From positions 1-39,297 of the forward strand of contig CAYPXV010000003.1 in NCBI GenBank assembly GCA_964414925.1: a DNA stretch of 39,297 nucleotides. Reading direction: 5' to 3'. Below are positions 1,354 through 31,263 of this stretch, piece by piece (within the stretch, counting starts at the first letter, position 1; each line of letters starts with the position of its first letter). Made by a program: the position numbers and the translations under genes. The notes beneath the pieces were generated by a model. That model was not told where the DNA came from. It did not search any database and saw nothing but the letters and a program-made list of their open reading frames with translations. This DNA comes from an uncultured Clostridium sp. (GTDB lineage Bacteria; Bacillota; Clostridia; Christensenellales; CAG-138).

Positions 1354-1689
1354 ATGCAGGAAAAGTCGGAATTGAGTATTCTTCTTGATTATTACGGTTC
1401 TCTTTTAACAAAGACCAGACTTGAAATTCTTACGCTGAGCATTGACGAGGACTTTTCTCTTGCCGAGATTGCCGAAATGAAGAACATTTCCAGGCAGGGA
1501 GTCCGAGATGCGATATGTCGTGCGGAAGCATCGTTGTACGATATGGAAGACAAACTCGGGTTTGTTAAGCGTGATATGCAGATTTCACGGTTGATCGCCG
1601 AATTGACCGCAAAACTGGAAGAAAATAATCTTGCCGATGATTCGATAAAAGAAACTGTAAAAAACCTAAAAAAGATGATGGAGGGTTGA
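1354..1689 (+). CDS. ylxM: YlxM/UPF0122 family putative helix-turn-helix protein (SRP operon companion)
   Basis: 111 aa with a sigma-70 region-4-like HTH (SLAEIAEMKNISRQGVRDAI). It sits directly upstream of ffh, as in Bacillus. Its N-terminus aligns with B. subtilis YlxM. Confidence 0.85.
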   Translation: MQEKSELSILLDYYGSLLTKTRLEILTLSIDEDFSLAEIAEMKNISRQGVRDAICRAEASLYDMEDKLGFVKRDMQISRLIAELTAKLEENNLADDSIKETVKNLKKMMEG

Positions 1690-1690
1690 A

Positions 1691-3037
1691 ATGGCATTTG
1701 AAGGACTTTCGTCAAAGCTTCAAAGTATTTTTAAAAAACTTGGCAATCGCGGAAAGCTTACCGAAAAAGAAGTTAAAGAGGTAATGAGGGAAGTCAAGCT
1801 TGCCTTGTTGGAAGCGGATGTCAATTTTTCGGTTGTAAAATCCTTCATAAATAATGTTTCTCAAAGAGCCGTAGGTGCGGAGGTGCTCGAGAGCCTTACC
1901 CCGTCTCAACAGATAATAAAAATCGTTAATGCGGAATTGATAGAACTCATGGGCGGTTCGGTCGAGAAAATTAATTTCGGACCAAGAAAGCCTTCGGTTA
2001 TACTTCTTGCGGGCTTGCAGGGAGCGGGTAAAACCACCATGGCAGGAAAACTTGCTGCGTTTTTAGCCAAAACACAAGGCAAGAAACCGCTGCTTGTAGC
2101 ATGTGATATCTATCGCCCGGCTGCGATTAAACAGCTTCAGATAGTAGGCGAGAGGGCAGGAGTGCCGGTGTTCGAAAAGGGAACCCAAAATCCCGTTCAA
2201 ACAGCCAAAGAAGCAATTGCTTACGCCGAGTATCATTTTTTGGATTTGGTAATTATCGATACCGCAGGACGACTTCATATTGATGAAAATATGATGGAGG
2301 AAATTACCGCCATAAAGGAGCAAGTCAACCCTTCCGAAATTCTTTTGGTTGTTGACTCAATGACGGGTCAGGATGCCGTAAACGTTGCTAAGAGCTTTAA
2401 CGAAAAACTTGAACTGACAGGTGTTATCCTAACCAAGCTTGATGGTGATACAAGAGGCGGTGCAGCACTCAGCGTTCGTTCGGTAACGGGAAAACCGATA
2501 AAGATCTCGGGCACAGGCGAAAAACTCACCGATGTAGAACTGTTCCATCCGGATAGAATGGCGTCGAGAATCCTCGGTATGGGTGATGTCTTAACGCTTA
2601 TCGAAAAGGCAGAGCAGGCATACGATGAGAAACAAGCCGAGGAGCTGGCAAGAAAGCTTACAGGTGACGAATTTACCCTTGAAGATTTCTTGGAACAACT
2701 TCAACAGGTAAAAAAGATGGGTTCATTTGACGAACTGCTTGCAATGATGCCGGGAATGAATACGGCTCAAATGAAGAACGTCGAGATTGACCCTAAAGCA
2801 AGCGCAAGCGTTGAGGCCATTATTCGTTCCATGACCCCGAAGGAACGACGTAAACCCGAAATTCTCAATGCAAGTAGGAAAAAACGAATCGCTGCCGGTA
2901 GCGGTACGAGCGTTCAACAGGTTAACAGATTGCTAAAGCAGTTTGAACAAACACGTCAGCTTATGAAACAGTTTACGGGTAAAGGAAAAAAACGTTTCGG
3001 GAAAAAGGGCTTTGGCGGCCTGTTCGGCATGAGATGA
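1691..3037 (+). CDS. ffh: Signal recognition particle protein Ffh
   Basis: SRP54-type GTPase motifs GLQGAGKTT, DTAGR and TKLDGD, plus a Met-rich M domain and a basic C-terminal tail. GGAGGG RBS. Confidence 0.97.
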   Translation: MAFEGLSSKLQSIFKKLGNRGKLTEKEVKEVMREVKLALLEADVNFSVVKSFINNVSQRAVGAEVLESLTPSQQIIKIVNAELIELMGGSVEKINFGPRKPSVILLAGLQGAGKTTMAGKLAAFLAKTQGKKPLLVACDIYRPAAIKQLQIVGERAGVPVFEKGTQNPVQTAKEAIAYAEYHFLDLVIIDTAGRLHIDENMMEEITAIKEQVNPSEILLVVDSMTGQDAVNVAKSFNEKLELTGVILTKLDGDTRGGAALSVRSVTGKPIKISGTGEKLTDVELFHPDRMASRILGMGDVLTLIEKAEQAYDEKQAEELARKLTGDEFTLEDFLEQLQQVKKMGSFDELLAMMPGMNTAQMKNVEIDPKASASVEAIIRSMTPKERRKPEILNASRKKRIAAGSGTSVQQVNRLLKQFEQTRQLMKQFTGKGKKRFGKKGFGGLFGMR

Positions 3038-3115
3038 TGCAAAGCCACAGGATAAACCAATACAGCCTTACTTGAGGCTTTTGGATATAGTTTAATTTAC
3101 CAGGAGGAATTATTT

Positions 3116-3358
3116 ATGCTTAAAATCAGACTTCGCAGAATGGGTGCAAAGAAGGCTCCTTTCTACAGAATCGTTGTTGCTGACTCACGCGCACCCCGTG
3201 ACGGTGCTTTTGTTGAGGAAATCGGATATTACAATCCCCTGACAGAACCGGAACAGGTTGTCGTTGACAGCGAGAAAGCAAGACAGTGGATAAAGAACGG
3301 TGCTCAGCCCACCGAGACTGTACGTGGTCTTTTCAAAAAGAACGGCGTTATTGAGTAA
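3116..3358 (+). CDS. rpsP: 30S ribosomal protein S16
   Basis: [25 protein letters not shown] is a canonical S16 N-terminus. AGGAGG RBS. Confidence 0.97.
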
Positions 3359-3621
3359 TGGAAGAAACTTTAAAACAGGTATCGATTGAAGATATGGTTA
3401 CTTTGACCGAATACATCGCAAAGAACCTTGTCGAAAATACCGATGAAGTAAAGATTAATCTTAAAGAAGACGATGAGACTGTAACGCTTGAGCTTTCGGT
3501 AGCTAAAGAGGATATGGGTAAGGTCATAGGTAAACAGGGTAGAATTGCAAAAGCAATACGTACCGTTGTCAGGGCTGCATCCATTCATAGCGAAAAGAAA
3601 GTTCTTGTCGAAATAGTATGA
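3358..3621 (+). CDS. KH-domain RNA-binding protein (YlqC-like)
   Basis: KH GXXG loop (VIGKQGRIAKAIR). The TAATG overlaps the rpsP stop. Conserved position between rpsP and rimM. Confidence 0.85.
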   Translation: MEETLKQVSIEDMVTLTEYIAKNLVENTDEVKINLKEDDETVTLELSVAKEDMGKVIGKQGRIAKAIRTVVRAASIHSEKKVLVEIV

Positions 3622-4151
3622 TGACGGATTATTTCCGCATAGGGCTTTTTGTTCGTCCGCACGGTGTCAAAGGTGAGCTGAAGATGCTTTCGCTTACGGA
3701 TGACCCCAAGAGATTTTCAAAGCTTCGTGATGCTTTTATAGAAACCGCCGACAACAGCTATAGACCCGTTAAAGTTCAAAGTGCAAAAGTTATCGGTGAT
3801 GGTTTTGTTATCGTTGCAATAGATGGCATCACTTCTATGGACGAAGCAGAGGCAATGCGAAATAAGTATCTGTGTGTAGACAGAGCTCATGCCGTTAAAT
3901 TACCCGAGGGTAGTTATTTCGTTAAGGATTTAATCGGTTGTTCCGTGAGTGGCAGTGACGGAGTTCTAATCGGAACGTTTGACGATTTTTATGAAACAAA
4001 CGCAAATGATGTCTATGTCGTCAAATGCGTTGACGGATCGAAATTGTCATTTCCCGCACTGAAAAAACTGCTGGTTTCGGTTGATATTGAGAATAAATGT
4101 ATTGTCGTTGATTCTCAAGTGCTTTTGGAGGTTGGTCTCATTGAGAATTGA
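3618..4151 (+). CDS. rimM: 16S rRNA processing protein RimM
   Basis: RimM-like N-terminus (IGLFVRPHGVKGELK) with a PRC barrel C-terminal part. The ATGATGA overlaps the upstream stop. Confidence 0.9.
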   Translation: MMTDYFRIGLFVRPHGVKGELKMLSLTDDPKRFSKLRDAFIETADNSYRPVKVQSAKVIGDGFVIVAIDGITSMDEAEAMRNKYLCVDRAHAVKLPEGSYFVKDLIGCSVSGSDGVLIGTFDDFYETNANDVYVVKCVDGSKLSFPALKKLLVSVDIENKCIVVDSQVLLEVGLIEN

Positions 4152-4878
4152 TATTCTGACCATATTCCCCGAGATGTTCGACAGTGTTCTTTCAACGAGC
4201 ATGATCGGTCGAGCGGCAGCAAAGGGAATTATTGAGTTTCATGTTCATAACATAAGGGATTACTCCGAAAATAAACATCGCAATACCGATGATTATCCGT
4301 TCGGTGGCGGTGCAGGCATGGTTATGATGGCTCAGCCGATATTCGACTGCGTGGAAGACGTTGATAAGCAGTGTAATACGGATTCAAAAGTGCGTCATAT
4401 TGTTATGACACCGAGAGGAAGAACACTGACACCCGAAATTGCAATGGAATTGGCGCAAGAGGACAACTTAGTAATTCTTGCCGGTCATTATGAAGGCATA
4501 GATGAGCGTGTCATGGAGCTGATGGATGATGAAATTTCGATCGGTGATTACATACTGACCGGCGGCGAACTTCCCGCAATGGTGCTGATTGATTGCCTTT
4601 CAAGGTTCATTCCGGGTGTATTGGGGAGCAGTGAGTCCGCTAAAGACGAAAGCTTTTCGGATTCGGGTTTGCTCGAATATCCGCAGTACACCAGACCATC
4701 CGTTTTTCGAGGTCGTGAGGTCCCGCAAGTCCTGCTTGGCGGAAATCATGCCGAAATATTGAAATGGCGCAGACAGCAGGCTCTTATTAAAACAAAGTTC
4801 ATGCGCCCCGATTTAATCGATGAATCCAAATTGTCAAGCCGTGATATTGAATTTTTAACCGGCTTGGAGGAGCAGTAG
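4141..4878 (+). CDS. trmD: tRNA (guanine37-N1)-methyltransferase TrmD
   Basis: The TTG start at 4141 gives (M)RIDILTIFPEMF, the canonical TrmD N-terminus, with GGAGG 10 nt upstream. It overlaps the rimM stop. The ORF-track start at 4081 lies inside rimM. Confidence 0.93.
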   Translation: MRIDILTIFPEMFDSVLSTSMIGRAAAKGIIEFHVHNIRDYSENKHRNTDDYPFGGGAGMVMMAQPIFDCVEDVDKQCNTDSKVRHIVMTPRGRTLTPEIAMELAQEDNLVILAGHYEGIDERVMELMDDEISIGDYILTGGELPAMVLIDCLSRFIPGVLGSSESAKDESFSDSGLLEYPQYTRPSVFRGREVPQVLLGGNHAEILKWRRQQALIKTKFMRPDLIDESKLSSRDIEFLTGLEEQ

Positions 4879-4908
4879 GGTATCTTAATAAATTTTTTTA
4901 TTTGATAC

Positions 4909-4937
4909 TTGCAAAAAAAATATAGTTGTGCTATAAT
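4909..4937 (+). promoter_or_regulatory. Candidate rplS promoter (TTGCAA-17-TGcTATAAT, extended -10)
   Basis: Hexamers read directly. It is followed by a leader of about 70 nt before the rplS RBS. Confidence 0.5.
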
Positions 4938-5006
4938 TAAATAGTTATTTGGGCGGTCCAATGATTGTTATGAAGCAGTTATGAACGTCTGTAAAAGGAG
5001 TTAAAT

Positions 5007-5360
5007 ATGTCTGAAATTATTAGAGAGCTCGAGAAAGAGCAACTTCGTACCGATCTTCCCAAGTTGGAGATAGGTGATACCGTCCGTGTCTTTGTTAAAG
5101 TTGTTGAAGGCAACCATGAAAGACTTCAGAATTTTGAAGGTATCGTTATTAAAATGCAGGGCGGCGGAATCCGCAAGTCTTTCACCGTTCGTCGTATAAG
5201 CTATGGTATCGGCGTTGAAAGAACCTTCCCGTACAATAGCCCGCGCATCGGCAGAATCGAAGTCGTTCGCCACGGTGTTGTTCGCAGAGCTAAGCTTTAT
5301 TACCTCCGTGAGAGAACGGGTAAAGCTGCAAAGATCAAAGAACGTATCGTTAAAAAGTAA
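5007..5360 (+). CDS. rplS: 50S ribosomal protein L19
   Basis: Canonical L19 sequence ([12 protein letters not shown]...RRAKLYYLR). AAGGAG RBS. Confidence 0.97.
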
Positions 5361-6951: not shown

Positions 6952-7332
6952 ATGGGAAATCTTAAAATAAATAGGGGAAGTAACACCCAAAAGGACGGCT
7001 TTAAGGCAGAGACAATGGTTAAATGGTATCTTTTCTTCCGAGGCTATAGGCTTTTGGAAAAGAATTATACCGTCGGACATAAGGAAATCGATTTGATAAT
7101 GAGAAAAAAGGATACAATTTTCTTTATTGAAGTCAAAGGTAGAAGAAAAATTGATGAAAGATTTCCGCCTAGGATGAGTGTAGACAGAAGAAAACAATTG
7201 AATATAATTGCAGCTGCTAAGATCTATCTGGCAAAAAATAAATTGAGGCGTGTTTATGTAAGCTTTGATGTTGCCGAAGTGGATTTGGATAAGAAACGGA
7301 TTATTTATATTGAAAATGCCTTTACGGAGTAA
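6952..7332 (+). CDS. YraN family (UPF0102) endonuclease-like protein
   Basis: The pattern G...AE...YL...GY.LL.KNY..GHKEIDLI....FIEVKGR is typical of UPF0102. Conserved position after rnhB. Confidence 0.85.
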   Translation: MGNLKINRGSNTQKDGFKAETMVKWYLFFRGYRLLEKNYTVGHKEIDLIMRKKDTIFFIEVKGRRKIDERFPPRMSVDRRKQLNIIAAAKIYLAKNKLRRVYVSFDVAEVDLDKKRIIYIENAFTE

Positions 7333-7416
7333 GATGATAATTGCTTTTAAATTCGACACTTAATCAAATCAAACTTTTAGTCGATTATCTGTGCGTAGAA
7401 TAAGATAAATATTGTC

Positions 7417-7445
7417 TTGACACGAATTTTGTATTGTGCTATACT
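7417..7445 (+). promoter_or_regulatory. Promoter of the riboswitch-controlled locus (TTGACA-17-TGcTATACT)
   Basis: Consensus -35 and an extended -10, read directly. The predicted TSS of about 7452 is the 5' end of the riboswitch. Confidence 0.6.
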
Positions 7446-7451
7446 TGCGCT

Positions 7452-7680
7452 GTAACGAAGGAACGGTTGCCGTGCGATTTTTCGTAGGCTTAAAAGGGAA
7501 TGCGGTTAAAGGCCGCAGCAGTCCCCGCTACTGTATCCGGTGACGAAATTGCTATAACCACTTCGCTTTATGCGTGGGAAGGTGCATTGAGTAGATTGAC
7601 CCGGGAGCCAGGAGACCTGCCGTACTTTCGCAATGGTGGTTCTCGGGAGATAGGCGACCTAAGGTGTGCATAGTGATACG
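7452..7680 (+). promoter_or_regulatory. Cobalamin (B12) riboswitch aptamer
   Basis: The conserved core AAAAGGGAAtGCGGTtAAaGgCCGCaGCaGtCCCCGCtACTGT lies at 7492-7534. The B12 box AGCCAGGAGACCTGCC lies at 7606-7621. Both match the Rfam RF00174 consensus from memory. Confidence 0.9.
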
Positions 7681-7709
7681 AGAACTGCATTTTATGCAGT
7701 TCTTTTTGT
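7681..7709 (+). terminator. Riboswitch expression-platform terminator
   Basis: AGAACTGCA (7681-7689) pairs with TGCAGTTCT (7695-7703), followed by TTTTTGTT. Confidence 0.8.
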
Positions 7710-7783
7710 TGCGTCTTTTTCCGCTTGCTTCCGACACCGTGTGATTGCAGTCACAAATAATTTTTGTTCGGAGGTTAAGCGAA

Positions 7784-8806
7784 ATGAAAAACTGCAAAAA
7801 ATTGATTGCGATTATTATGGTCGCAGCACTTATGTTGTCCTGTGTCGCTGCTATGGCGCAGGTTGTACCGACGTATCCCGAAGTTCCCGACGGATATGAC
7901 GGATTCGTAACCATTTCGGTTTCGGCAGCCACCATAGGCTGGGGATACTTGGTTACACCGATGCTCGTTCCCGTACATAACGGAGAAAGCGTTGCACAAG
8001 CAACGGTTCGTCTGTTCGACACACTTAGTATCGGCTATATAGCGGGTTCCATGGAGAATTTCTATCTCAGCAATATTTCATGCCAGAATTGCGTGGACGG
8101 AGTTGCTCCCAATGTCCCGAGTTACTTAATGGAACAGCTTGAGCTGTACCCCGGTTGGGCAGAAGAAAATTACGGATACTCATATGGCGAATGGACAGGA
8201 ACCGAAAATGGAAACGGTATGTTGGGTGAAGGTGACTTCAGTGATTTCGCAGGCTGGATGATAGCGGAAAATAATGTTTCACTTCCCGTTGGTGCAGGTT
8301 CTTATTCCGTACAGGTAGGTTGTTCTTATCAGTGGGGATTTACCGTTTACGGATGGGGAATGGATCTCGGTTGGAGCAACGGTTGGGGTTCTTTCCCGAT
8401 ATTCGATAACCCCGCAGAAGGCGTTAACCGCTCCGAAGCTGAAAAAGCAGTTGCCATGATTTTATCGGATGAAACATTATCACCCAAAGTTGAAGAAGGT
8501 GGTGCGGCATATACCGAGTTCGCAAGCTTGAAATCCGCTCTTGAGATCATTTCTTCAAGTCAGGAACAGATAGACGACTGCCTTGCTCAATTATTGAATG
8601 CACTTGAAGACAACGCCTTGTTGCTCGGCGATGTTAACGGTGACGGTGCCGTTAATATGCAGGATGCACAATTGGTTTTGAGACATTCGATGGGCTTAAT
8701 GCAACTTTCTGACGAAGCACTTGCCGTCGCCGACGTTAACGCAGACGGAAACATCAACTCCGCAGATGCAACTCTTATTGTCAGAATTGCACTTGGTCTT
8801 GTTTGA
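7784..8806 (+). CDS. Secreted DUF4430-like protein with a C-terminal type I dockerin
   Basis: GGAGG RBS and a signal peptide MKNCKKLIAIIMVAALMLSCVAAMA/Q. The central region aligns by eye with the DUF4430 lipoprotein at 10207 (NGESVAQATVRLF vs EGESVYDVLVREC; AGWMIAENNVSLPVGAGSYSV...WGFTVYGWGMDLG vs SGWTYCVNSVFPNYGCSNYFL...FHYTCDLGRDVG). The C-terminus has two dockerin Ca-binding repeats, DVNGDGAVNMQDAQLVLR and DVNADGNINSADATLIVR. Confidence 0.8.
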   Translation: MKNCKKLIAIIMVAALMLSCVAAMAQVVPTYPEVPDGYDGFVTISVSAATIGWGYLVTPMLVPVHNGESVAQATVRLFDTLSIGYIAGSMENFYLSNISCQNCVDGVAPNVPSYLMEQLELYPGWAEENYGYSYGEWTGTENGNGMLGEGDFSDFAGWMIAENNVSLPVGAGSYSVQVGCSYQWGFTVYGWGMDLGWSNGWGSFPIFDNPAEGVNRSEAEKAVAMILSDETLSPKVEEGGAAYTEFASLKSALEIISSSQEQIDDCLAQLLNALEDNALLLGDVNGDGAVNMQDAQLVLRHSMGLMQLSDEALAVADVNADGNINSADATLIVRIALGLV

Positions 8807-8818
8807 TAAAAGTTTGTT

Positions 8819-8856
8819 CCTATGCGGTGAATTGCTTTCACTGCATAGGTTTTATT
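8819..8856 (+). terminator. Strong intrinsic terminator/attenuator hairpin inside the riboswitch-controlled locus
   Basis: A 13-bp stem (8819-8831 pairs with 8837-8849, one G-U) with loop TTGCT, followed by TTTTATTGTTT. Confidence 0.75.
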
Positions 8857-8863
8857 GTTTACT

Positions 8864-10210
8864 ATGCTGAAAAAGTTTTCTAAGATTATAATAGCTTTCG
8901 TCCTGCTTCTGTCATTCTTGCTTTGCGTAACGGTCAGTTTTGCCGATAAAGCGGAATACACTTCCGAGCTTGACGCAACTCTTACCAGACTTAAAGGTTC
9001 AAAACCGCAGTTCGGTTCGATAGGCGGTGAATGGAAGGTCTTTGCGCTTGCAAGGAGCGGTCGCATTGATAAAGATTCAAAGTTTGTTTCCGATTATCTT
9101 TCTTCAATAGAAGATATGCTCAGGAATAATGGAGATCCTAAACTTGACCCGAGAAAGCCGAGTGAGAATTCAAGACTCATAATTGCTTTGTCAAGCCTGG
9201 GTTATGATGCAACCGATGTCGCCGGTTTTGACTTGACTCAGCCACTTAAAGAAATCGACTTTGTCCGTAAGCAGGGTATAACAGGTGTTATATATGCGCT
9301 CATTGCTCTCGATTGTAAAAGCGAATATGCGACAACCTCGTATAAAAAACAACTCGTTGATTTTATTGTAAATGCGGAAATTAACGGTGGTGGATGGGCG
9401 ATGGGCGGCAATGTGCCCGATCCCGATATTACCGCTGCGGCAATATACGCTATTGCCGACTATTCATCTGCTAAATCTGCGGTTAATCGAGGTGTAAATA
9501 TCCTTTCGGAAATCCAATGCGATAACGGTGCTTTCCAAAGCTATGGCAATATCAATTCCGAAAGTTGCTCACAGGTTCTTGTAGCTTTGAGTACGGTCGG
9601 AATAGATGCATCGTCGGATTCGAGATTTATTAAAAACGGTTGTTCATTACTTGATGCACTGCTCTCATTCTTTACCGGTGACGGCTTTGCACATCTGTAT
9701 GGCGGTTCGGTTAACCAGATGGCAAGCGAGCAAGCAGCGTATGCGTTATGTGCTTACAACAGAATGGTAAAACATAAAACCAATCTGTACGACATGTCCG
9801 ATGTCTGGAGCGCATCTTCACCAACTCCGACTAAGACGCCGAAACCGACCGCAACACTTAAACCGACAGCGACTCCGATAGTGACTTCGACTCCGACAGC
9901 GCCCCCCGCCTCAACTCCTGTTGAGACAACAAGACTTGACAGTAATACCGAGAAGCCTTCGCTTACACCGTCGGTTGATTCTACATCAACACCCGAAGCT
10001 ACATTCGAATTTGTGACGGAAACGATCACAACTGATGAAGAAACGCCGTCACCGACAGCGCAAACCGATACGGTTGAGCCGACTGTTATTACAACGGAAG
10101 AACCTGTCGGCGGAAAGGAAGCAAATGCAAAATGGCTCTTGCCGCTGTGTTTGATTGCTGCCGTTTTGGTAGGTATTACGGTGTTTGTTTCGATTAGGAG
10201 GAAATCTTGA
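8864..10210 (+). CDS. Cell-surface alpha/alpha-toroid (prenyltransferase/terpene-cyclase-like repeat) protein with a Pro/Thr linker and a C-terminal TM anchor
   Basis: Signal peptide MLKKFSKIIIAFVLLLSFLLCVTVSFA. Repeats such as NGGGWAMGGNVPDPDITAAAIYAI and QCDNGAFQSYGNINSESCSQVLVAL are typical of squalene-cyclase/prenyltransferase-type toroids. The PT/ST-rich linker lies at about nt 9815-10110. The terminal WLLPLCLIAAVLVGITVFVSIRRKS is a TM helix with a basic tail and no LPXTG. I prefer the ATG at 8864 to the ORF-track TTG at 8855, but no obvious SD precedes it. Confidence 0.75.
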   Translation: MLKKFSKIIIAFVLLLSFLLCVTVSFADKAEYTSELDATLTRLKGSKPQFGSIGGEWKVFALARSGRIDKDSKFVSDYLSSIEDMLRNNGDPKLDPRKPSENSRLIIALSSLGYDATDVAGFDLTQPLKEIDFVRKQGITGVIYALIALDCKSEYATTSYKKQLVDFIVNAEINGGGWAMGGNVPDPDITAAAIYAIADYSSAKSAVNRGVNILSEIQCDNGAFQSYGNINSESCSQVLVALSTVGIDASSDSRFIKNGCSLLDALLSFFTGDGFAHLYGGSVNQMASEQAAYALCAYNRMVKHKTNLYDMSDVWSASSPTPTKTPKPTATLKPTATPIVTSTPTAPPASTPVETTRLDSNTEKPSLTPSVDSTSTPEATFEFVTETITTDEETPSPTAQTDTVEPTVITTEEPVGGKEANAKWLLPLCLIAAVLVGITVFVSIRRKS

Positions 10211-10695
10211 AAAGAATTTCTTGCTTGATATTAACAATCTTTTTCTTGTTTGCATGCTTAACCGCTTGTGATGTAGGAAAAGAAGAAAACGGTCTTACCT
10301 GCACTCTATATATCGAATGTAAGACAGCACTGAACTATGAGGAACTGGACCCCGAAATTAGGGAAATAATCCCGGATGACGGAATTATTATTCAACAAAG
10401 CACCGTTGCTTTTGATGAAGGAGAGTCCGTTTATGATGTTCTCGTCAGAGAATGTAAAGAAAGAGGAATACACATGGAGGCATCATATACCCCGGTGTAT
10501 AACAGTGCTTATATAGAAGGCATCAATAACCTCTATGAGTTTGATTGCGGAAGCTTAAGCGGATGGACGTATTGTGTTAATTCCGTCTTTCCGAATTACG
10601 GATGCAGTAATTACTTTCTTTCTGACGGAGACTGCATAGAATTTCACTACACTTGCGACTTAGGTCGTGATGTCGGTTGTGTTTTTGAGGAGTAA
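10207..10695 (+). CDS. DUF4430-domain lipoprotein (putative corrinoid-binding)
   Basis: TTG start 5 nt after AGGAGG, overlapping the upstream TGA. The lipobox is L-T-A-C (Cys21). The body matches DUF4430, including GWTYCVNSVFPNYGCSNYFLSDGDCIEFHYT. Confidence 0.8.
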   Translation: MKRISCLILTIFFLFACLTACDVGKEENGLTCTLYIECKTALNYEELDPEIREIIPDDGIIIQQSTVAFDEGESVYDVLVRECKERGIHMEASYTPVYNSAYIEGINNLYEFDCGSLSGWTYCVNSVFPNYGCSNYFLSDGDCIEFHYTCDLGRDVGCVFEE

Positions 10696-10703
10696 AAGTA
10701 AGT

Positions 10704-11585
10704 ATGAGACGAGATGCATTTGATGATGTACATCCCTTTATTGCGTTTGCTTTTTTCGCTTACGCAATTTTAGTGACGACTCTTTTTATGCATCCCGTCT
10801 TTATTATCGCTTCATTCCTTATCGGGATTAGCTGGTCTTTTATCCTTGTCGGTAGAAAAACATTGAACTTACTGGTTAAGTTTATTCTGCCGGTTACAAT
10901 TATTATTGCGATTATTAATCCTTTGTTTAATCATAAGGGTTTGACTATTCTTTTTTATCTTAAAGATAATCCGATAACACTTGAATCCATTATCTATGCC
11001 CTCGTAGCATCTGCAATGTTTGCATCCGTCATTATTTGGTTTTCATGCTTTAATGAAATAATCAAAAGTGAAAAGATAATCTACATATTCGGTAAAACCT
11101 TGCCGTCGATTTCCTTGCTGATTATGCTTGTACTCAGATTCGTACCGCTTTATAAACGCCAAGCTCAAAAGATAGCTTTATCTATGCGTGCAAGAGGGTG
11201 CGATACGGAAGGCGGCAACGTCATCAAGCGTGCCAAAACAGGTTTGAACATACTTCTGGCTCTTATAACCTGGGGGCTTGAAAGCTCTGTAACTACAGCC
11301 GACTCCATGAGGTCAAGAGGTCATGGATTGCATGGCAGAACTTTTTATTCCGATTATCGTTTGGATAAGAGAGATATCGTAATTGTGATTTGTATGCTGT
11401 TAGGTGGGATAACCGCAGTATACGGCATTGCAACAGGCTCCGTGTTCGTTAAGTTCTATCCGCTGTTTAAAATGAATGAATGGGACTTCACAACACTCCT
11501 TTATTCTGCAATACATGCGCTTGTTCTTTTTATTCCGATTATTTTAAATGTTATTGAGGCTACAAGATGGAAATACTCAAAATAA
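10704..11585 (+). CDS. ecfT: ECF transporter transmembrane (T) component, EcfT/CbiQ family
   Basis: Polytopic membrane protein with the two coupling-helix Arg motifs MRARG and MRSRG, in the spacing typical of EcfT/CbiQ. Confidence 0.85.
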   Translation: MRRDAFDDVHPFIAFAFFAYAILVTTLFMHPVFIIASFLIGISWSFILVGRKTLNLLVKFILPVTIIIAIINPLFNHKGLTILFYLKDNPITLESIIYALVASAMFASVIIWFSCFNEIIKSEKIIYIFGKTLPSISLLIMLVLRFVPLYKRQAQKIALSMRARGCDTEGGNVIKRAKTGLNILLALITWGLESSVTTADSMRSRGHGLHGRTFYSDYRLDKRDIVIVICMLLGGITAVYGIATGSVFVKFYPLFKMNEWDFTTLLYSAIHALVLFIPIILNVIEATRWKYSK

Positions 11586-13216
11586 ACGATTTAAGTTTTT
11601 CATATTCAACCGAAAAAAACGGCAGACAGGCTCTTTCACATATAAACCTTTCCATAGACGAAGGTCAGTTCGTGCTTGTATGCGGCTCGTCGGGATGCGG
11701 TAAATCGACTTTACTTAAACAGATTAAGCCTTCGTTAAGACCCTATGGTAAGCTTGACGGTTCGATATTGCTTGACGAAAAAAACGTGGATGAATTGTCC
11801 TTCCGCCAACAATCGGAATTAATCGGCTTTGTGATGCAGGATCCCGAGATGCAGATAGTTACGGATAAGGTCTTTCATGAACTTGCCTTCGGTTTGGAAA
11901 ATTTGGGAGTAGATAATACTCAAATGCATATTCGCATTGCGGAAACGGTTAATTATTTCGGGATTCAGAACATAATTAACAATGATACTTCGGAATTATC
12001 AGGTGGGCAAAAACAAATCGTCTGCCTGGCGGGTATTATGGCAATGCAGCCTAAAATTCTGCTGTTGGATGAACCCACTTCTCAGCTTGACCCGATTGCG
12101 GCAAGTGAATTTATTTCCGCATTAAAGCGAATTAACGAGGAATTGGGGACTACAATTATCATTACAGAACATAGATATGAGAGCCTGTTTCCTGTGGCAG
12201 ACAGAGTGGTTTTTATGGAAAACGGACAAATAATCTCCGACAGTAAACCGCAAAATTCGGTAATGAAGCTTATTAATAAGCCCGAATACATAGAGATATT
12301 GCCGACAACATTAAGATTGTATGCAGCAACATCCGATTTAACGGGCGATGCTCCGTTAACGGTGCGTGATGGAAGAAATTATTTGCGTACTTTCGCCAAA
12401 ACCGAGGCTAAATCATGTGCATTAAAAATAAAAAACCCGGATAAACAAACCCCGATTCTTTCGGCAAAAGATGTTTATTTCAAATATGATGCCTCAGGAA
12501 AAGACGTACTGAGAAGTTTTAATTTCGATGTTTTTCAGGGAGAACTTATGTGCATTATAGGTGCAAACGGTTCGGGGAAAACAACCGCAATAATGACAGC
12601 GTCCGGTTTATACACTCCGTACAGAGGTAAGGTCAGTTTCAAAGGTAAGAATATGCGTACCTACAAGAAAACGGAACTTTACGGAAAACAGATTGCTCTG
12701 CTGGTTCAAAATCCGATTTGTACCTTTGTTCATGATACGGTGATTGAGGAACTTGAAGATGTGTGTAAGAATTTCTCGATACCAAAACAAAGACTGAATG
12801 AAGTTATAGAACTGATGGAGCTTGAGAATATTCTTGACAAGCATCCTTATGACGTTAGCGGAGGAGAAATTCAGCGTGCGGCTATAGCGGCTTTGCTTTT
12901 GCCGAGTCCGGAAGTTATCTTCTTGGATGAAGCAACAAAGGGAATGGATGGTTTTTTTAAGAAGAAATTCGGTGCTTTTTTAAAGAAAATAACTGCCGCC
13001 GGTACTGCCGTCGTTTTGGTTTCCCATGATATAGAGTTTTGTGCGGAATATGCGGATAGGTGCGCAATGTTTTTTGACGGAACAATTACCGCACAGGGAC
13101 TACCTGAACAAACTTTACTGAATAACAGCTTCTATACGACAACCGCAAATAGGTTATCTCGAGAAGTTATTTCTGCGGTTTTGACTACCGAGGAATTAAT
13201 CGATAGTGTGAAGTGA
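11567..13216 (+). CDS. Fused tandem ECF/ABC ATPase (EcfA-EcfA')
   Basis: Two nucleotide-binding domains. NBD1 has GSSGCGKST, LSGGQKQ and LLLDEPTS. NBD2 has GANGSGKTT, VSGGEIQ and IFLDEATK. It overlaps the ecfT end by 19 nt. Confidence 0.9.
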   Translation: MEILKINDLSFSYSTEKNGRQALSHINLSIDEGQFVLVCGSSGCGKSTLLKQIKPSLRPYGKLDGSILLDEKNVDELSFRQQSELIGFVMQDPEMQIVTDKVFHELAFGLENLGVDNTQMHIRIAETVNYFGIQNIINNDTSELSGGQKQIVCLAGIMAMQPKILLLDEPTSQLDPIAASEFISALKRINEELGTTIIITEHRYESLFPVADRVVFMENGQIISDSKPQNSVMKLINKPEYIEILPTTLRLYAATSDLTGDAPLTVRDGRNYLRTFAKTEAKSCALKIKNPDKQTPILSAKDVYFKYDASGKDVLRSFNFDVFQGELMCIIGANGSGKTTAIMTASGLYTPYRGKVSFKGKNMRTYKKTELYGKQIALLVQNPICTFVHDTVIEELEDVCKNFSIPKQRLNEVIELMELENILDKHPYDVSGGEIQRAAIAALLLPSPEVIFLDEATKGMDGFFKKKFGAFLKKITAAGTAVVLVSHDIEFCAEYADRCAMFFDGTITAQGLPEQTLLNNSFYTTTANRLSREVISAVLTTEELIDSVK

Positions 13217-13959
13217 GCATTATGAACGGCAATAAATTTTTTAAGCTGATACAAAATAATAAAAACAGATTGATATCGACGTTGCTATTTGTCATAATTG
13301 TTCCGTGCTTAATAGCACTCGGAATAGTTGTTTGGGATGATAGGCATTACTATATAGTCTCCGCAATTATTATAATAGCTGCGCTCGTTCCGTTTACTCT
13401 GCTTTTTGAAAAAAGAAAACCTAAAACACGAGAATTGGTTCTTATTGCCGTCATGACAACTCTGGGCGTAGTAGGTAGGGTTGCTTTTTATATGTTGCCC
13501 CAGTTTAAACCTGTCACTGCAATAGTCATTATTACGGGTGCTGCATTTGGAGGCGAGGCAGGTTTTGTGACAGGTGCATTGACTGCTTTCATTTCCAATA
13601 TGTTTTTCGGTCAAGGTCCGTGGACTCCCTGGCAAATGTTTGCATTCGGAATAATCGGATTTTTATCAGGATTGATTTTTTATAAGAAATCGGAAAAGAT
13701 AAATATCATGCAGTTGGTAGTGTTCGGAGCATTGGCAACGTTGATTATTTACGGAGCGATTATGGACACTTCATCCCTTTTTTCGATGAGCGATGAGGTG
13801 TCTTTTAAGGCATTATTGAGCCTTTTTGCTTCGGGTTTTATAATGAATGTAATTCATGCTCTTTCAACCGTAGTCTTTTTATTGCTTTTATCTAAGCCGC
13901 TACTGAAAAAGCTTCAAAGGATAAAAATTAAATACGGAATATTGAGCCCAAACGATTAA
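13213..13959 (+). CDS. ECF transporter substrate-capture (S) component, candidate corrinoid-specific (CbrT-like role)
   Basis: A small membrane protein of 6-7 TM helices, with an S-component-like core (GRVAFYMLPQFKPVTAIVIITGAAFG...GPWTPWQMFAFG). It is translationally coupled to the ATPase (GTG 13213 overlaps the TGA; alternative ATG at 13222). Substrate specificity is inferred only from the riboswitch context. Confidence 0.65.
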   Translation: MSIMNGNKFFKLIQNNKNRLISTLLFVIIVPCLIALGIVVWDDRHYYIVSAIIIIAALVPFTLLFEKRKPKTRELVLIAVMTTLGVVGRVAFYMLPQFKPVTAIVIITGAAFGGEAGFVTGALTAFISNMFFGQGPWTPWQMFAFGIIGFLSGLIFYKKSEKINIMQLVVFGALATLIIYGAIMDTSSLFSMSDEVSFKALLSLFASGFIMNVIHALSTVVFLLLLSKPLLKKLQRIKIKYGILSPND

Positions 13960-29678: not shown

Positions 29679-30326
29679 ATGAAGAAGAAATACACGATTA
29701 TAATTAAAATTGCAATCTATATCGTTGTTATTCTTCTTTGTATGGTTCTTTATTTCAAGTACGGCTTGATAGAAAACGAGCAAGTTGACGGTAATTCTCC
29801 CGAACTGACTGTCGTACCCACGACTTCGCCACAACCATATCCGTGCCGATATGAGATTGTTGAAAATATAATTAACGAGGGTATTCAGATAAGTACCGAT
29901 GTTTATTATTTTAACAAAGATGAATCATATTATGATTACAAATTTGAATACGGCACCGATTCTGTTTATGAAGGCACAGTGAGGATAACCGTTAATAAAT
30001 TTGACTGTATCCTTTGCTCCGAGCTTCAGCTTAAAAATTTATCAAAAGTTCCCGATGCAATAGGGGAACGGGAATTGTTGGAATTGGAAAGCTTAAAGCG
30101 GGATAAGGAAAATATCGAGCTTATGCGTAAATTCGTTCTTGCATGTACTAAACTTTTGAATAAAGATGAAGTTATTCCGGTGACTATCCTGAATAAGATA
30201 ATCGACAGAGTTCAATCCGCCTATCTTGAAGAAAAAGAACTGAGCTTTACCGAGTATGGCGTTCGTTATAGATTAATTTGCGATGAATCCGAATTGTATT
30301 CAAATTATTATTTATTGGTAAATTAA
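29679..30326 (+). CDS. Hypothetical membrane-anchored protein (single N-terminal TM)
   Basis: N-terminal TM IIIKIAIYIVVILLCMVLYF followed by an extracytoplasmic domain of about 185 aa. I recognise no motif. It ends 10 nt upstream of the Spo0A-like gene. Confidence 0.55.
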   Translation: MKKKYTIIIKIAIYIVVILLCMVLYFKYGLIENEQVDGNSPELTVVPTTSPQPYPCRYEIVENIINEGIQISTDVYYFNKDESYYDYKFEYGTDSVYEGTVRITVNKFDCILCSELQLKNLSKVPDAIGERELLELESLKRDKENIELMRKFVLACTKLLNKDEVIPVTILNKIIDRVQSAYLEEKELSFTEYGVRYRLICDESELYSNYYLLVN

Positions 30327-30336
30327 GAGTAAGCTT

Positions 30337-31263
30337 ATGTCGTATAAATCGAGAAGAGATGAATTTTATCCGAATGAATTTGACTATGTGAAACTGATGA
30401 CACTGTTTACAGTTCCGCTTATTGTAACTTCTCCTTTGCATATAAGGAATGGTCGGGAATTTGGTGACGAGATGTTTAAAGCATTGTCGGAACAGTTTGT
30501 CAGAACTCAACCGCCTTTGAGAGATAAAAACAGCTTTTTGCATATGCTTTTCAATTGCATCCCCGGAATTATCCTTATCGAGAATAATTTTGATGGGATT
30601 GATATGATTGAATGTATAAAAGCTTTAAAAACAGGCGAAGTTTGTAAAAATACCGAGTTCTACATTGTTGCCAGGCGAACCAATAAAACCCTCGAAGCAA
30701 AGTGCAAAGAAAGTCCTTATGTCAGAGGTGTAATTTATGCGAGCGCACCAATCAAAGAATCGGTCAACAGAATCGCTAAAGAATATCGCGAAATGCTCAA
30801 TGAGCGTGTAAGGTTGAATAAGACACTCGATAATCTTCCGGATCAAAGATCACCGTACCTGGTGTTCATGGATTCCGAAAAAGAAGGTAAATTATTCAGT
30901 GGAAACTTGATTAATGACTTGCTTAGACCGTTGGGCTTTGACAAAAAGCAAGTCGGAACGCAGTATACTTGCACCATGATTGCTTTGGGTCTTTTGGGCT
31001 GTGCATCTTCGATGAATGAGATGTATGAATACATCGCTCTTATCGAATGTACCACTCCTCAAATTGTTGAGAAAACTATAAGGTATTCTATCGAACAAGC
31101 ATGGACTCGTCCGACATCCGCTATGCAGATGGTTGTTTTCGGCAATACCATCGATCCGGAAAAGGGTAAGCCCACCAATGCCGAGTTCTTATCGACAGTA
31201 GTGCAGCATATACGCACACATAACTACAACAATATGTTGGTTTGCGGCGATATGGACGATTAA
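30337..31263 (+). CDS. Spo0A C-terminal (Spo0A_C) DNA-binding domain protein with a degenerate receiver-like N-terminus
   Basis: The C-terminal about 110 aa align with B. subtilis Spo0A. EKTIRYSIEQAWTRP matches ERAIRHAIEVAWSRG, and EKGKPTNAEFLSTVVQHIR matches TKAKPTNSEFIAMVADKLR. The N-terminal half is only receiver-like (PGIILIENNFDG vs PDVLVLDIIMPHLDG). Confidence 0.75.
   Translation: MSYKSRRDEFYPNEFDYVKLMTLFTVPLIVTSPLHIRNGREFGDEMFKALSEQFVRTQPPLRDKNSFLHMLFNCIPGIILIENNFDGIDMIECIKALKTGEVCKNTEFYIVARRTNKTLEAKCKESPYVRGVIYASAPIKESVNRIAKEYREMLNERVRLNKTLDNLPDQRSPYLVFMDSEKEGKLFSGNLINDLLRPLGFDKKQVGTQYTCTMIALGLLGCASSMNEMYEYIALIECTTPQIVEKTIRYSIEQAWTRPTSAMQMVVFGNTIDPEKGKPTNAEFLSTVVQHIRTHNYNNMLVCGDMDD

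Follow-up and report, generated by a model that had tools for sequence, protein, structure and literature searches.

A type I dockerin on a transcobalamin-like protein encoded directly after a cobalamin riboswitch in an uncultured Clostridium

Our analysis concerns g1, a gene on the contig CAYPXV010000003.1 of an uncultured Clostridium sp. (assembly GCA_964414925.1), the whole of which, 39,297 bp in length, is referred to below as the window and provides the coordinates and strand of all features given without a locus number. The gene lies first after a cobalamin riboswitch and encodes a secreted protein in which a divergent module of the transcobalamin-like SLBB/DUF4430 superfamily is joined to a canonical type I dockerin. 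It is followed by genes for a toroid protein (g2), a DUF4430 lipoprotein (g3) and an energy-coupling factor (ECF) importer (g4–g6), and we consider it probable that g1 is the outermost component of a system for corrinoid uptake under repression by B12, tethered by its dockerin and acting together with g2, g3 and the importer.

Comparisons were made at several levels. The g1 sequence was aligned with 21 full-length homologues from the protein database, showing 43–92% identity, to give an alignment of 22 orthologues, and a genome survey for g1 homologues, limited to one genome per species, yielded 33 loci (denoted by L-numbers), while a scan for riboswitches covered 24 related loci. A census of the N-terminal module included 73 related proteins, and within the window all open reading frames (ORFs) of at least 120 aa were scanned against Pfam at the cut-offs used.

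The dockerin and the N-terminal module of g1

The first-pass annotation of this DNA had placed two canonical dockerin repeats at the C-terminus of the protein, and they are present there. Residues 281–333 match Pfam Dockerin_1 (PF00404) at 47.2 bits (E 2.5e-12; the curated cut-off is 22.9), and the repeats are DVNGDGAVNMQDA (residues 283–295, nt 8630–8668) and DVNADGNINSADA (residues 317–329, nt 8732–8770). Each of the two tandem segments of about 22 residues, DVNGDGAVNMQDAQLVLR and DVNADGNINSADATLIVR, carries an EF-hand-like calcium loop (D-x-N/D-x-D...D) followed by a helix, and the calcium ligands D283, D287, D294, D317 and D328 are invariant, or nearly so, among the 22 orthologues. The dockerin occurs in 20 of the 21 full-length homologues with its calcium-binding residues intact. 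In an AlphaFold2 model of g1 that was based on the orthologue alignment, with a mean predicted local distance difference test (pLDDT) score of 87.4, the dockerin superposes on the type I dockerin of C. thermocellum (2ccl_B) with a template modelling (TM) score of 0.91 and a root-mean-square deviation of 1.0 Å, and it also superposes on 1ohz_B, 4fl4 and 4uyq_B. Profile matches of this region in the PDB were exclusively to dockerins.

Likeness between the N-terminal domain and the DUF4430 lipoprotein encoded downstream, also proposed earlier, was borne out by an hhalign comparison of the two families, which gave a probability of 95.1% and an E-value of 3e-8 over 99 columns; the alignment pairs a conserved SGW...N core and places an insertion of about 46 residues on the g1 side. 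Among the module relatives, 58 of 73 match Pfam DUF4430 (E <= 1e-3), P0159 doing so with 36.5 bits. When the model of the g1 N-domain was searched with Foldseek, matches with a probability of 1.00 were obtained to 8ixu, 4zrp, 2bb5, 5no0, 5np4, 4kki and 2pmv, targets that include transcobalamin, haptocorrin and intrinsic factor. Target-normalised TM scores of 0.71–0.72 were obtained with the isolated transcobalamin beta domain, without cobalamin (5no0) or with it (5np4), and the DUF4430 crystal structure 3u7z was matched with a probability of 0.98, such that the DUF4430 fold anticipated for this domain is found in the model. From the hhalign result, the fold matches and the DUF4430 matches of its relatives, therefore, the N-domain belongs, by profile and by model, to the transcobalamin-like SLBB/DUF4430 superfamily, in which it is a divergent member.

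The module carries an invariant motif, YGxGMDxG...GWGxFPxFxNP, and is constantly accompanied by the helical linker, its profile extending to position 251 in most matches. One relative, the 569-aa protein P0159 (L018 3701–5410), contains the module twice in tandem followed by a single dockerin.

The g1 ORF runs from the ATG at 7784 to a stop codon at 8804–8806. We take this ATG to be the start because GGAGG precedes it at 7770–7774 and because the MKxCKK N-terminus is common to all 21 full-length homologues. None of M1, K2 and C4 varies among the 22 orthologues, and K5 hardly does (nt 7784–7801 in g1); the cysteine C4 falls within the charged N-region of the signal peptide. The homologue at L004, a locus devoid of a riboswitch, carries F in place of this cysteine. 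Conservation of these residues might reflect an RNA-level constraint close to the start codon. The pLDDT score is low across residues 14–25, within the predicted signal peptide, for which the 22-orthologue alignment revealed no conserved lipobox cysteine. A lipoprotein assignment for g1 was ruled out, since the cysteine in the hydrophobic region is missing from P0002 and P0005 and its context is not that of a lipobox.

Riboswitch control and composition of the operon

The features of the locus are summarised in Table 1. There is no gene between the riboswitch and g1, as the first-pass annotation had claimed, and, because the riboswitch, a promoter-like site and a terminator-like hairpin all lie upstream, g1 is the first gene under a B12-responsive transcriptional switch in which the hairpin would work as the OFF switch. 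Membership of a cobalamin regulon was assigned where an RF00174 or RF01482 aptamer with an expression platform lies upstream on the same strand, and this is found for g1. A tandem pair of cobalamin riboswitches (7230–7416 and 7588–7766) occurs at L035, ahead of the gene for a fused binder (see below). A further hairpin separates g1 from g2 and may act as a partial terminator, with g1 being made in excess over the products of the downstream genes. It was rejected as a conserved feature; similar hairpins are present at L017 and L024 and they are not general.

Table 1. Features of the g1 locus and the downstream operon, in window coordinates.
Feature	Position	Strand	Details
Promoter-like site	7417–7445	+	TTGACA, 17 nt, TG-TATACT; 11/12 matches; ends 2 nt 5' of the riboswitch; consensus match only
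Cobalamin riboswitch aptamer RF00174	7447–7638	+	Rfam 120.8 bits, E 5.7e-30; full-length model match
Terminator-like hairpin of the expression platform	7680–7713	+	GAGAACTGCA-TTT-TATGCAGTTCTT, then T-run; hairpin located at 7680–7704
g1	7784–8806	+	Secreted 340-aa protein: signal peptide, DUF4430/SLBB-like domain, helical linker, type I dockerin
g1 signal peptide	7784–7861	+	Residues 1–26; predicted cleavage after AMA, from sequence and alignment
g1 divergent DUF4430/SLBB (transcobalamin beta-domain-like) module	7862–8430	+	Residues ~27–215; hhalign, Foldseek
g1 helical linker	8431–8608	+	Residues ~216–275; conserved SSQEEID motif; model helices 217–275
g1 type I dockerin	8624–8782	+	Residues 281–333; two calcium-binding repeats
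Hairpin between g1 and g2	8819–8849	+	13 bp, then TTTTATTGTT (T-run); -19.9 kcal/mol
g2	8855–10210	+	Signal peptide, alpha/alpha toroid (residues ~30–317), disordered Pro/Thr linker of ~100 aa, C-terminal membrane helix
g3	10207–10695	+	DUF4430 lipoprotein, lipobox LTAC; Pfam DUF4430 55.5 bits
g4	10704–11585	+	ECF T component, CbiQ family; Pfam CbiQ 31.6 bits
g5	11567–13216	+	Fused double ECF ATPase (A-A'); two ABC_tran domains; TIGR04520 and TIGR04521 matches
g6	13213–13959	+	CbrT-related ECF S component; Pfam ECF-ribofla_trS, ECF_trnsprt

The linkage to the riboswitch, together with the fold, suggests that corrinoids are bound by the g1 module. A different ligand, another imported tetrapyrrole or metal chelate such as heme, has to be considered since in L. 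sakei a homologous ECF operon, which encodes split alpha- and beta-transcobalamin-like subunits, was proposed to take up heme (bioRxiv 10.1101/864751); divergence of the g1 module from canonical DUF4430, and the distant dockerin-bearing operons L037, L043 and L044, which carry no riboswitch at the Rfam threshold, are also compatible with such a ligand. Nevertheless, we regard it as very improbable, given that 23 of the 24 loci scanned carry a cobalamin or adenosylcobalamin riboswitch immediately before the g1 homologue, that the fold matches of the N-domain are to B12 carriers, and that the sole PDB relative of the g6 S component is the B12-specific CbrT (6fnp_A, E 7.1e-11), 6FNP being the structure of the B12 importer ECF-CbrT (PMC5997447). 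The window carries the components by which an ECF-CbrT-type importer was recognised, namely a CbrT-related S component, EcfT and two EcfA ATPase domains. The ATPase pair and the S component, encoded separately by g5 and g6 in the window, are fused in proteins of about 880 aa at L037 (9732–12380), L039 (9916–12558) and L043 (7406–10018).

For g2, the Pfam matches are to Prenyltrans and SQHop_cyclase and they are weak, and the toroid was modelled with pLDDT scores above 95. Foldseek matched it to prenyltransferases, terpene cyclases and the transcobalamin alpha domain.

The 33 loci derive almost entirely from uncultured gut or rumen Clostridia, some of which bear the labels Christensenellaceae, Christensenella sp. 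or Clostridium sp. CAG:138; g1 homologues occur, for example, in GCA_022510765.1 (Christensenellaceae HAN035) and UMGS453. Every one of the 33 loci contains the g1-g2-g3 trio, and ECF genes are adjacent in about 20. Maintenance of the arrangement, and of B12 control, across many species implies that it is under selection and is not a chance fusion in one genome. In about ten loci (L004–L011, L014 and L015; for example, L010 11044–16133) the trio is followed by polysaccharide biosynthesis genes instead of ECF genes, and there the transporter must be encoded elsewhere. Moreover, the g1 module and the g2 toroid are joined in a single polypeptide of about 890 aa at L035, at L036 and at seven Clostridium loci, including those of C. 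bornimense and Clostridium sp. MSJ-8; this fusion argues that the two work together, as do the beta and alpha domains of transcobalamin.

The remainder of the window carries housekeeping genes, including gyrB, ffh and those for GAPDH, HflX, SHMT and Spo0A. An ORF of 215 aa lacking a Pfam match (29679–30326) lies directly upstream of the Spo0A-like gene (30337–31263), and a tRNA gene with a long variable arm is located at the contig end (39213–39294); the latter probably encodes tRNA-Tyr because the anticodon loop reads GUA.

Anchoring of g1 and candidate partners for its dockerin

As g1 itself has no anchor, its attachment would depend on the dockerin and on a cohesin encoded at another site in the genome. 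Some insight into the role of this attachment comes from the anchors of related proteins. The nearest relatives without a dockerin (P0008, P0160 and P0163) carry in its place a Pro/Thr linker and a C-terminal membrane helix, and among the 73 module relatives Dockerin_1 was found in 14, SLH in 10, Big_2 in seven and CWB2 in two. The g2 toroid family variously carries membrane helices, dockerins, SLH domains or a fused DUF4430, and in the operons of L043 and L044 a canonical DUF4430 protein and toroid proteins bear dockerins as well. Given this variety among related binders, we regard the dockerin as one of several interchangeable surface-anchoring devices.

At the C-terminus of the fused g1/g2 binders there is a dockerin-like module, and immediately downstream lies a gene for a protein of some 210 aa that combines an N-terminal membrane helix with a cohesin domain. 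Such genes were located at L028 (C. bornimense; 4375–5031, next to the fused binder gene at 1632–4310), L027, L029, L031–L034, L035 (10701–11333), L037 (7001–7612) and L039 (7001–7627), positioned after the dockerin-ending B12-binder fusion and before the DUF4430 lipoprotein and ECF genes. The family has 54 database members, each with one cohesin domain; all six aligned members match Pfam Cohesin (best E 6.8e-8), their PDB profile matches are all to cohesins, and precomputed PF00963 matches exist for L035–L040. To judge from gene order and domain content, the membrane cohesin next to a dockerin-bearing binder looks like a dedicated one-to-one membrane anchor within a transporter operon. Just upstream of its B12 operon, L037 (1986–3570) encodes a second membrane cohesin, of 211 aa, and directly after it a GDSL lipase with a dockerin, and gene-paired cohesins and dockerins may therefore be a general anchoring scheme in that organism. 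Both the replacement of the dockerin by membrane helices and the operon-encoded anchors with one cohesin point to simple tethering at the cell surface, and the g1 dockerin is best read as such a tether.

Searches for a cohesin near g1 and its homologues extended over limited regions. In the 39-kb window the Pfam scan of ORFs of at least 120 aa, at the cut-offs used, detected no cohesin, scaffoldin or carbohydrate-active enzyme, and no cohesin of the operon type occurs in the window or within 8 kb of the gene in L001–L026, as judged by tblastn and by a hidden Markov model of the 54-member family, a narrow model that overlooked the second, different cohesin of L037. Nor does a cohesin adjoin the genes of P0029 and P0026, the proteins with dockerins most similar to that of g1. 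A cohesin concealed in the wider g2-g3 spacing of L019–L025 was ruled out, the space being occupied by longer Pro/Thr linkers or by an extra Pro/Thr-rich membrane protein. In the fused proteins, the region of about 235 aa between toroid and dockerin (L028 3402–4106 and its equivalents) appears cohesin-like by eye and was aligned with the membrane cohesins by hhalign at only 41% probability; a PDB profile search with this middle region of the fused Clostridium proteins gave no match.

The first-pass annotation had envisaged a dockerin that displays a vitamin-binding module, under B12 control, on a cellulosome or amylosome scaffold. Its first part stands, in that the dockerin, the transcobalamin-like fold and the riboswitch are all present, while the scaffold lacks a counterpart in the window. 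Non-cellulosomal dockerins are well known, so the accompanying statement that dockerins normally recruit carbohydrate-active enzymes was too narrow. Docking of g1 into a multi-cohesin scaffoldin, by which a polysaccharide-degrading complex would also display a vitamin scavenger, is consistent with the canonical type I character of the dockerin, whose closest solved relatives are cellulosomal dockerins and those of the R. bromii amylosome. Its best database matches sit on other secreted proteins (LRR_5 and nuclease proteins), implying that related organisms carry several dockerin proteins in need of partners, and both cohesin and dockerins have been reported in single-cell genomes of Christensenellales (PMC10266427). 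We nonetheless consider docking to a scaffoldin improbable. In addition to the negative searches, limited for scaffoldins to the window and for the tested cohesin type to the vicinity of the gene in the 26 related loci, the dockerin is exchanged for membrane helices in the nearest relatives, the sister systems encode a dedicated membrane protein with a single cohesin rather than a scaffoldin, and the pairing of membrane cohesin and lipase-dockerin genes at L037 suggests one-to-one anchoring. The cargo is neither a carbohydrate-active enzyme nor a carbohydrate-binding module according to Pfam.

The same searches bear on whether the g1 dockerin binds a cohesin at all. It could serve instead as a calcium-stabilised module contacting the g2 stalk, the cell wall or g1 itself, or g1 could be freely released; the window and the 26 loci yielded no cohesin, L043 and L044 also lack one in their operons, and in non-cellulosomal genomes dockerins are commonly present where no cohesin can be detected. 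However, strong conservation of the dockerin with its calcium sites intact, a model nearly identical to those of cohesin-binding dockerins, interchangeability with membrane anchors and the cognate membrane cohesins adjoining related dockerin-bearing binders all speak against a dockerin without a partner, and inspection was limited to a small fraction of each genome. We consider such a dockerin unlikely, and tethering through a cohesin remains the interpretation that we prefer.

A model for corrinoid capture and its relation to known systems

In the mechanism that we propose, the riboswitch would permit transcription of the operon when corrinoid is scarce, as its combination with a terminator suggests, and g1 would be exported by means of a cleavable signal peptide, without a lipid or membrane anchor of its own. 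Binding of the type I dockerin to a cohesin encoded elsewhere would keep the protein at the cell surface, where its SLBB/DUF4430 module would serve as the beta half of a transcobalamin-like binder split between two proteins. The alpha half would be the g2 toroid, raised over its C-terminal membrane helix by a Pro/Thr stalk some 100 residues long, and the corrinoid would be sandwiched between the two halves as it is between the domains of transcobalamin. Subsequently the ligand would be taken over by g3, the short membrane DUF4430 lipoprotein, and would enter the ECF importer (g4–g6) through its CbrT-like S component. The comparisons show the domain identities and folds, the riboswitch linkage, the conserved trio, the fusions, the exchange of anchors and the sister-operon cohesins, and from these we infer corrinoid binding by g1, its pairing with g2, the order of the hand-off and a cohesin partner.

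Several observations weigh against this model. Pfam DUF4430 (PF14478) scores 15.4 bits on g1 itself, below the cut-off of 23.8, and covers only profile positions 38–66; the Foldseek E-values of the N-domain are modest, at 2e-3 to 4e-2, despite the probabilities of 1.00; and the module has an insertion of about 46 aa and extra conserved motifs to which no role is assigned. No report of B12 binding by a bacterial DUF4430 or toroid protein was found in the literature searched, and the g2 fold fits transcobalamin no better than it does prenyltransferases and terpene cyclases. With an alpha-like g2 and a beta-like g3, the system could suffice without g1, and the L. sakei system, as mentioned above, was proposed to carry heme. 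L004 has no riboswitch even at E <= 1, and a consensus TTGACA/TATATT promoter directly upstream of its g1 homologue (7925–8000) suggests constitutive expression in that lineage. As regards tethering, the sister-operon cohesins pair with a divergent dockerin subtype (20.6 bits), unlike the canonical dockerin of g1, and to this is added the negative outcome near L001–L026 of cohesin searches that reached a small part of each genome.

Many elements of the system were foreseen by Burroughs, Balaji, Iyer and Aravind in 2007 (Biol Direct 2:4, PMC1796856), who defined the SLBB superfamily and predicted surface scavenging of B12 by bacterial transcobalamin-like SLBB proteins. Common to their systems and the present one are secreted or surface SLBB (DUF4430) domains, linkage to a CbiO/CbiQ-type transporter, a toroid that is fused N- or C-terminally or linked in the operon, and a second SLBB paralogue in the operon. 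The anchors described there were LPXTG, Ig, FIVAR, fasciclin and beta-propeller, and the word dockerin is absent from the paper, as is any mention of operon-encoded membrane cohesins like those of the sister systems; g1 belongs to a divergent subfamily with the 46-aa insertion, a helical tail and a dockerin. PMC10266427 recorded the cohesin and dockerin domains of Christensenellales single-cell genomes without a functional assignment. In the literature searched, we found nothing that links a dockerin to DUF4430 or to cobalamin riboswitches, the papers that name both dockerin and vitamin B12 leaving them unconnected, and the first-pass impression that a dockerin on a B12 binder is undescribed agrees with this. 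The surface B12-scavenging system itself was predicted in 2007 (PMC1796856), and what appears to be new is the dockerin on such a binder.

The fold of the g1 N-domain is that of the beta domain, and the alpha/alpha toroid of g2 that of the alpha domain, of mammalian transcobalamin, intrinsic factor and haptocorrin. Carriers of the transcobalamin type hold one cobalamin sandwiched between their two domains. Unlike in the mammalian proteins, the halves are separate here and are anchored to a bacterial surface, the Clostridium fusions run beta-then-alpha, the reverse of transcobalamin, and sequence identity is 10–15%.

Closer in arrangement are the L. sakei genes Lsa1836-1840, where an ECF importer is likewise accompanied by separate beta- and alpha-like transcobalamin subunits (Lsa1839/Lsa1840) with a proposed role in extracellular scavenging (bioRxiv 10.1101/864751). 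They differ in that heme is the proposed ligand and that there are two extracellular proteins, not three, and the paper mentions neither a riboswitch nor a dockerin. The ECF-CbrT complex of Lactobacillus delbrueckii (6FNP, PMC5997447) shares the CbrT-like S component and the T and A/A' components. In the window, three genes for extracellular proteins precede those of the transporter. To our knowledge, the characterised ECF-CbrT complex has no extracellular binding proteins.

Non-cellulosomal cohesin-dockerin pairs, and the amylosome of Ruminococcus bromii, resemble g1 in placing a type I dockerin on a protein that is not a plant-cell-wall enzyme, the partner being a membrane-anchored cohesin in the sister operons. 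They differ in that the cargo here is a riboswitch-controlled micronutrient-binding module and not an enzyme or toxin, and in that cohesin and dockerin genes adjoin within a transporter operon in the sister systems. A functional parallel is offered by BtuG of Bacteroides, a surface B12-binding lipoprotein under riboswitch control that captures corrinoid ahead of the transporter, as is proposed for g1. BtuG differs in having an unrelated fold, a beta-propeller, in residing on a Gram-negative outer membrane and in feeding a TonB-dependent transporter.

More speculatively, the pairing of cohesin and dockerin could represent a widespread and previously unrecognised assembly for corrinoid capture at the surface of gut and rumen Clostridia, in which g1 acts as a releasable B12 carrier that loads at a distance from the cell, or acquires the vitamin from its neighbours, and docks again on a cohesin beside g2, g3 and the ECF importer, as a Gram-positive counterpart of hemophores and of BtuG. 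We advance this only as a long shot.

Competition for B12 and its analogues shapes gut communities, and extracellular corrinoid capture by Gram-positive anaerobes is almost unstudied. The present locus, with those of at least 33 related genomes, connects a riboswitch-controlled importer of the CbrT type, a split transcobalamin-like binder and attachment by cohesin and dockerin. The fused and split forms of the binder, together with those operons in which a membrane cohesin is also encoded, provide ready pairs for binding experiments. If the proposed reading is correct, the biology of cohesins and dockerins would extend from polysaccharide degradation to the scavenging of micronutrients, and these Clostridia would offer a testable model for the bacterial ancestors of the animal B12 carriers.

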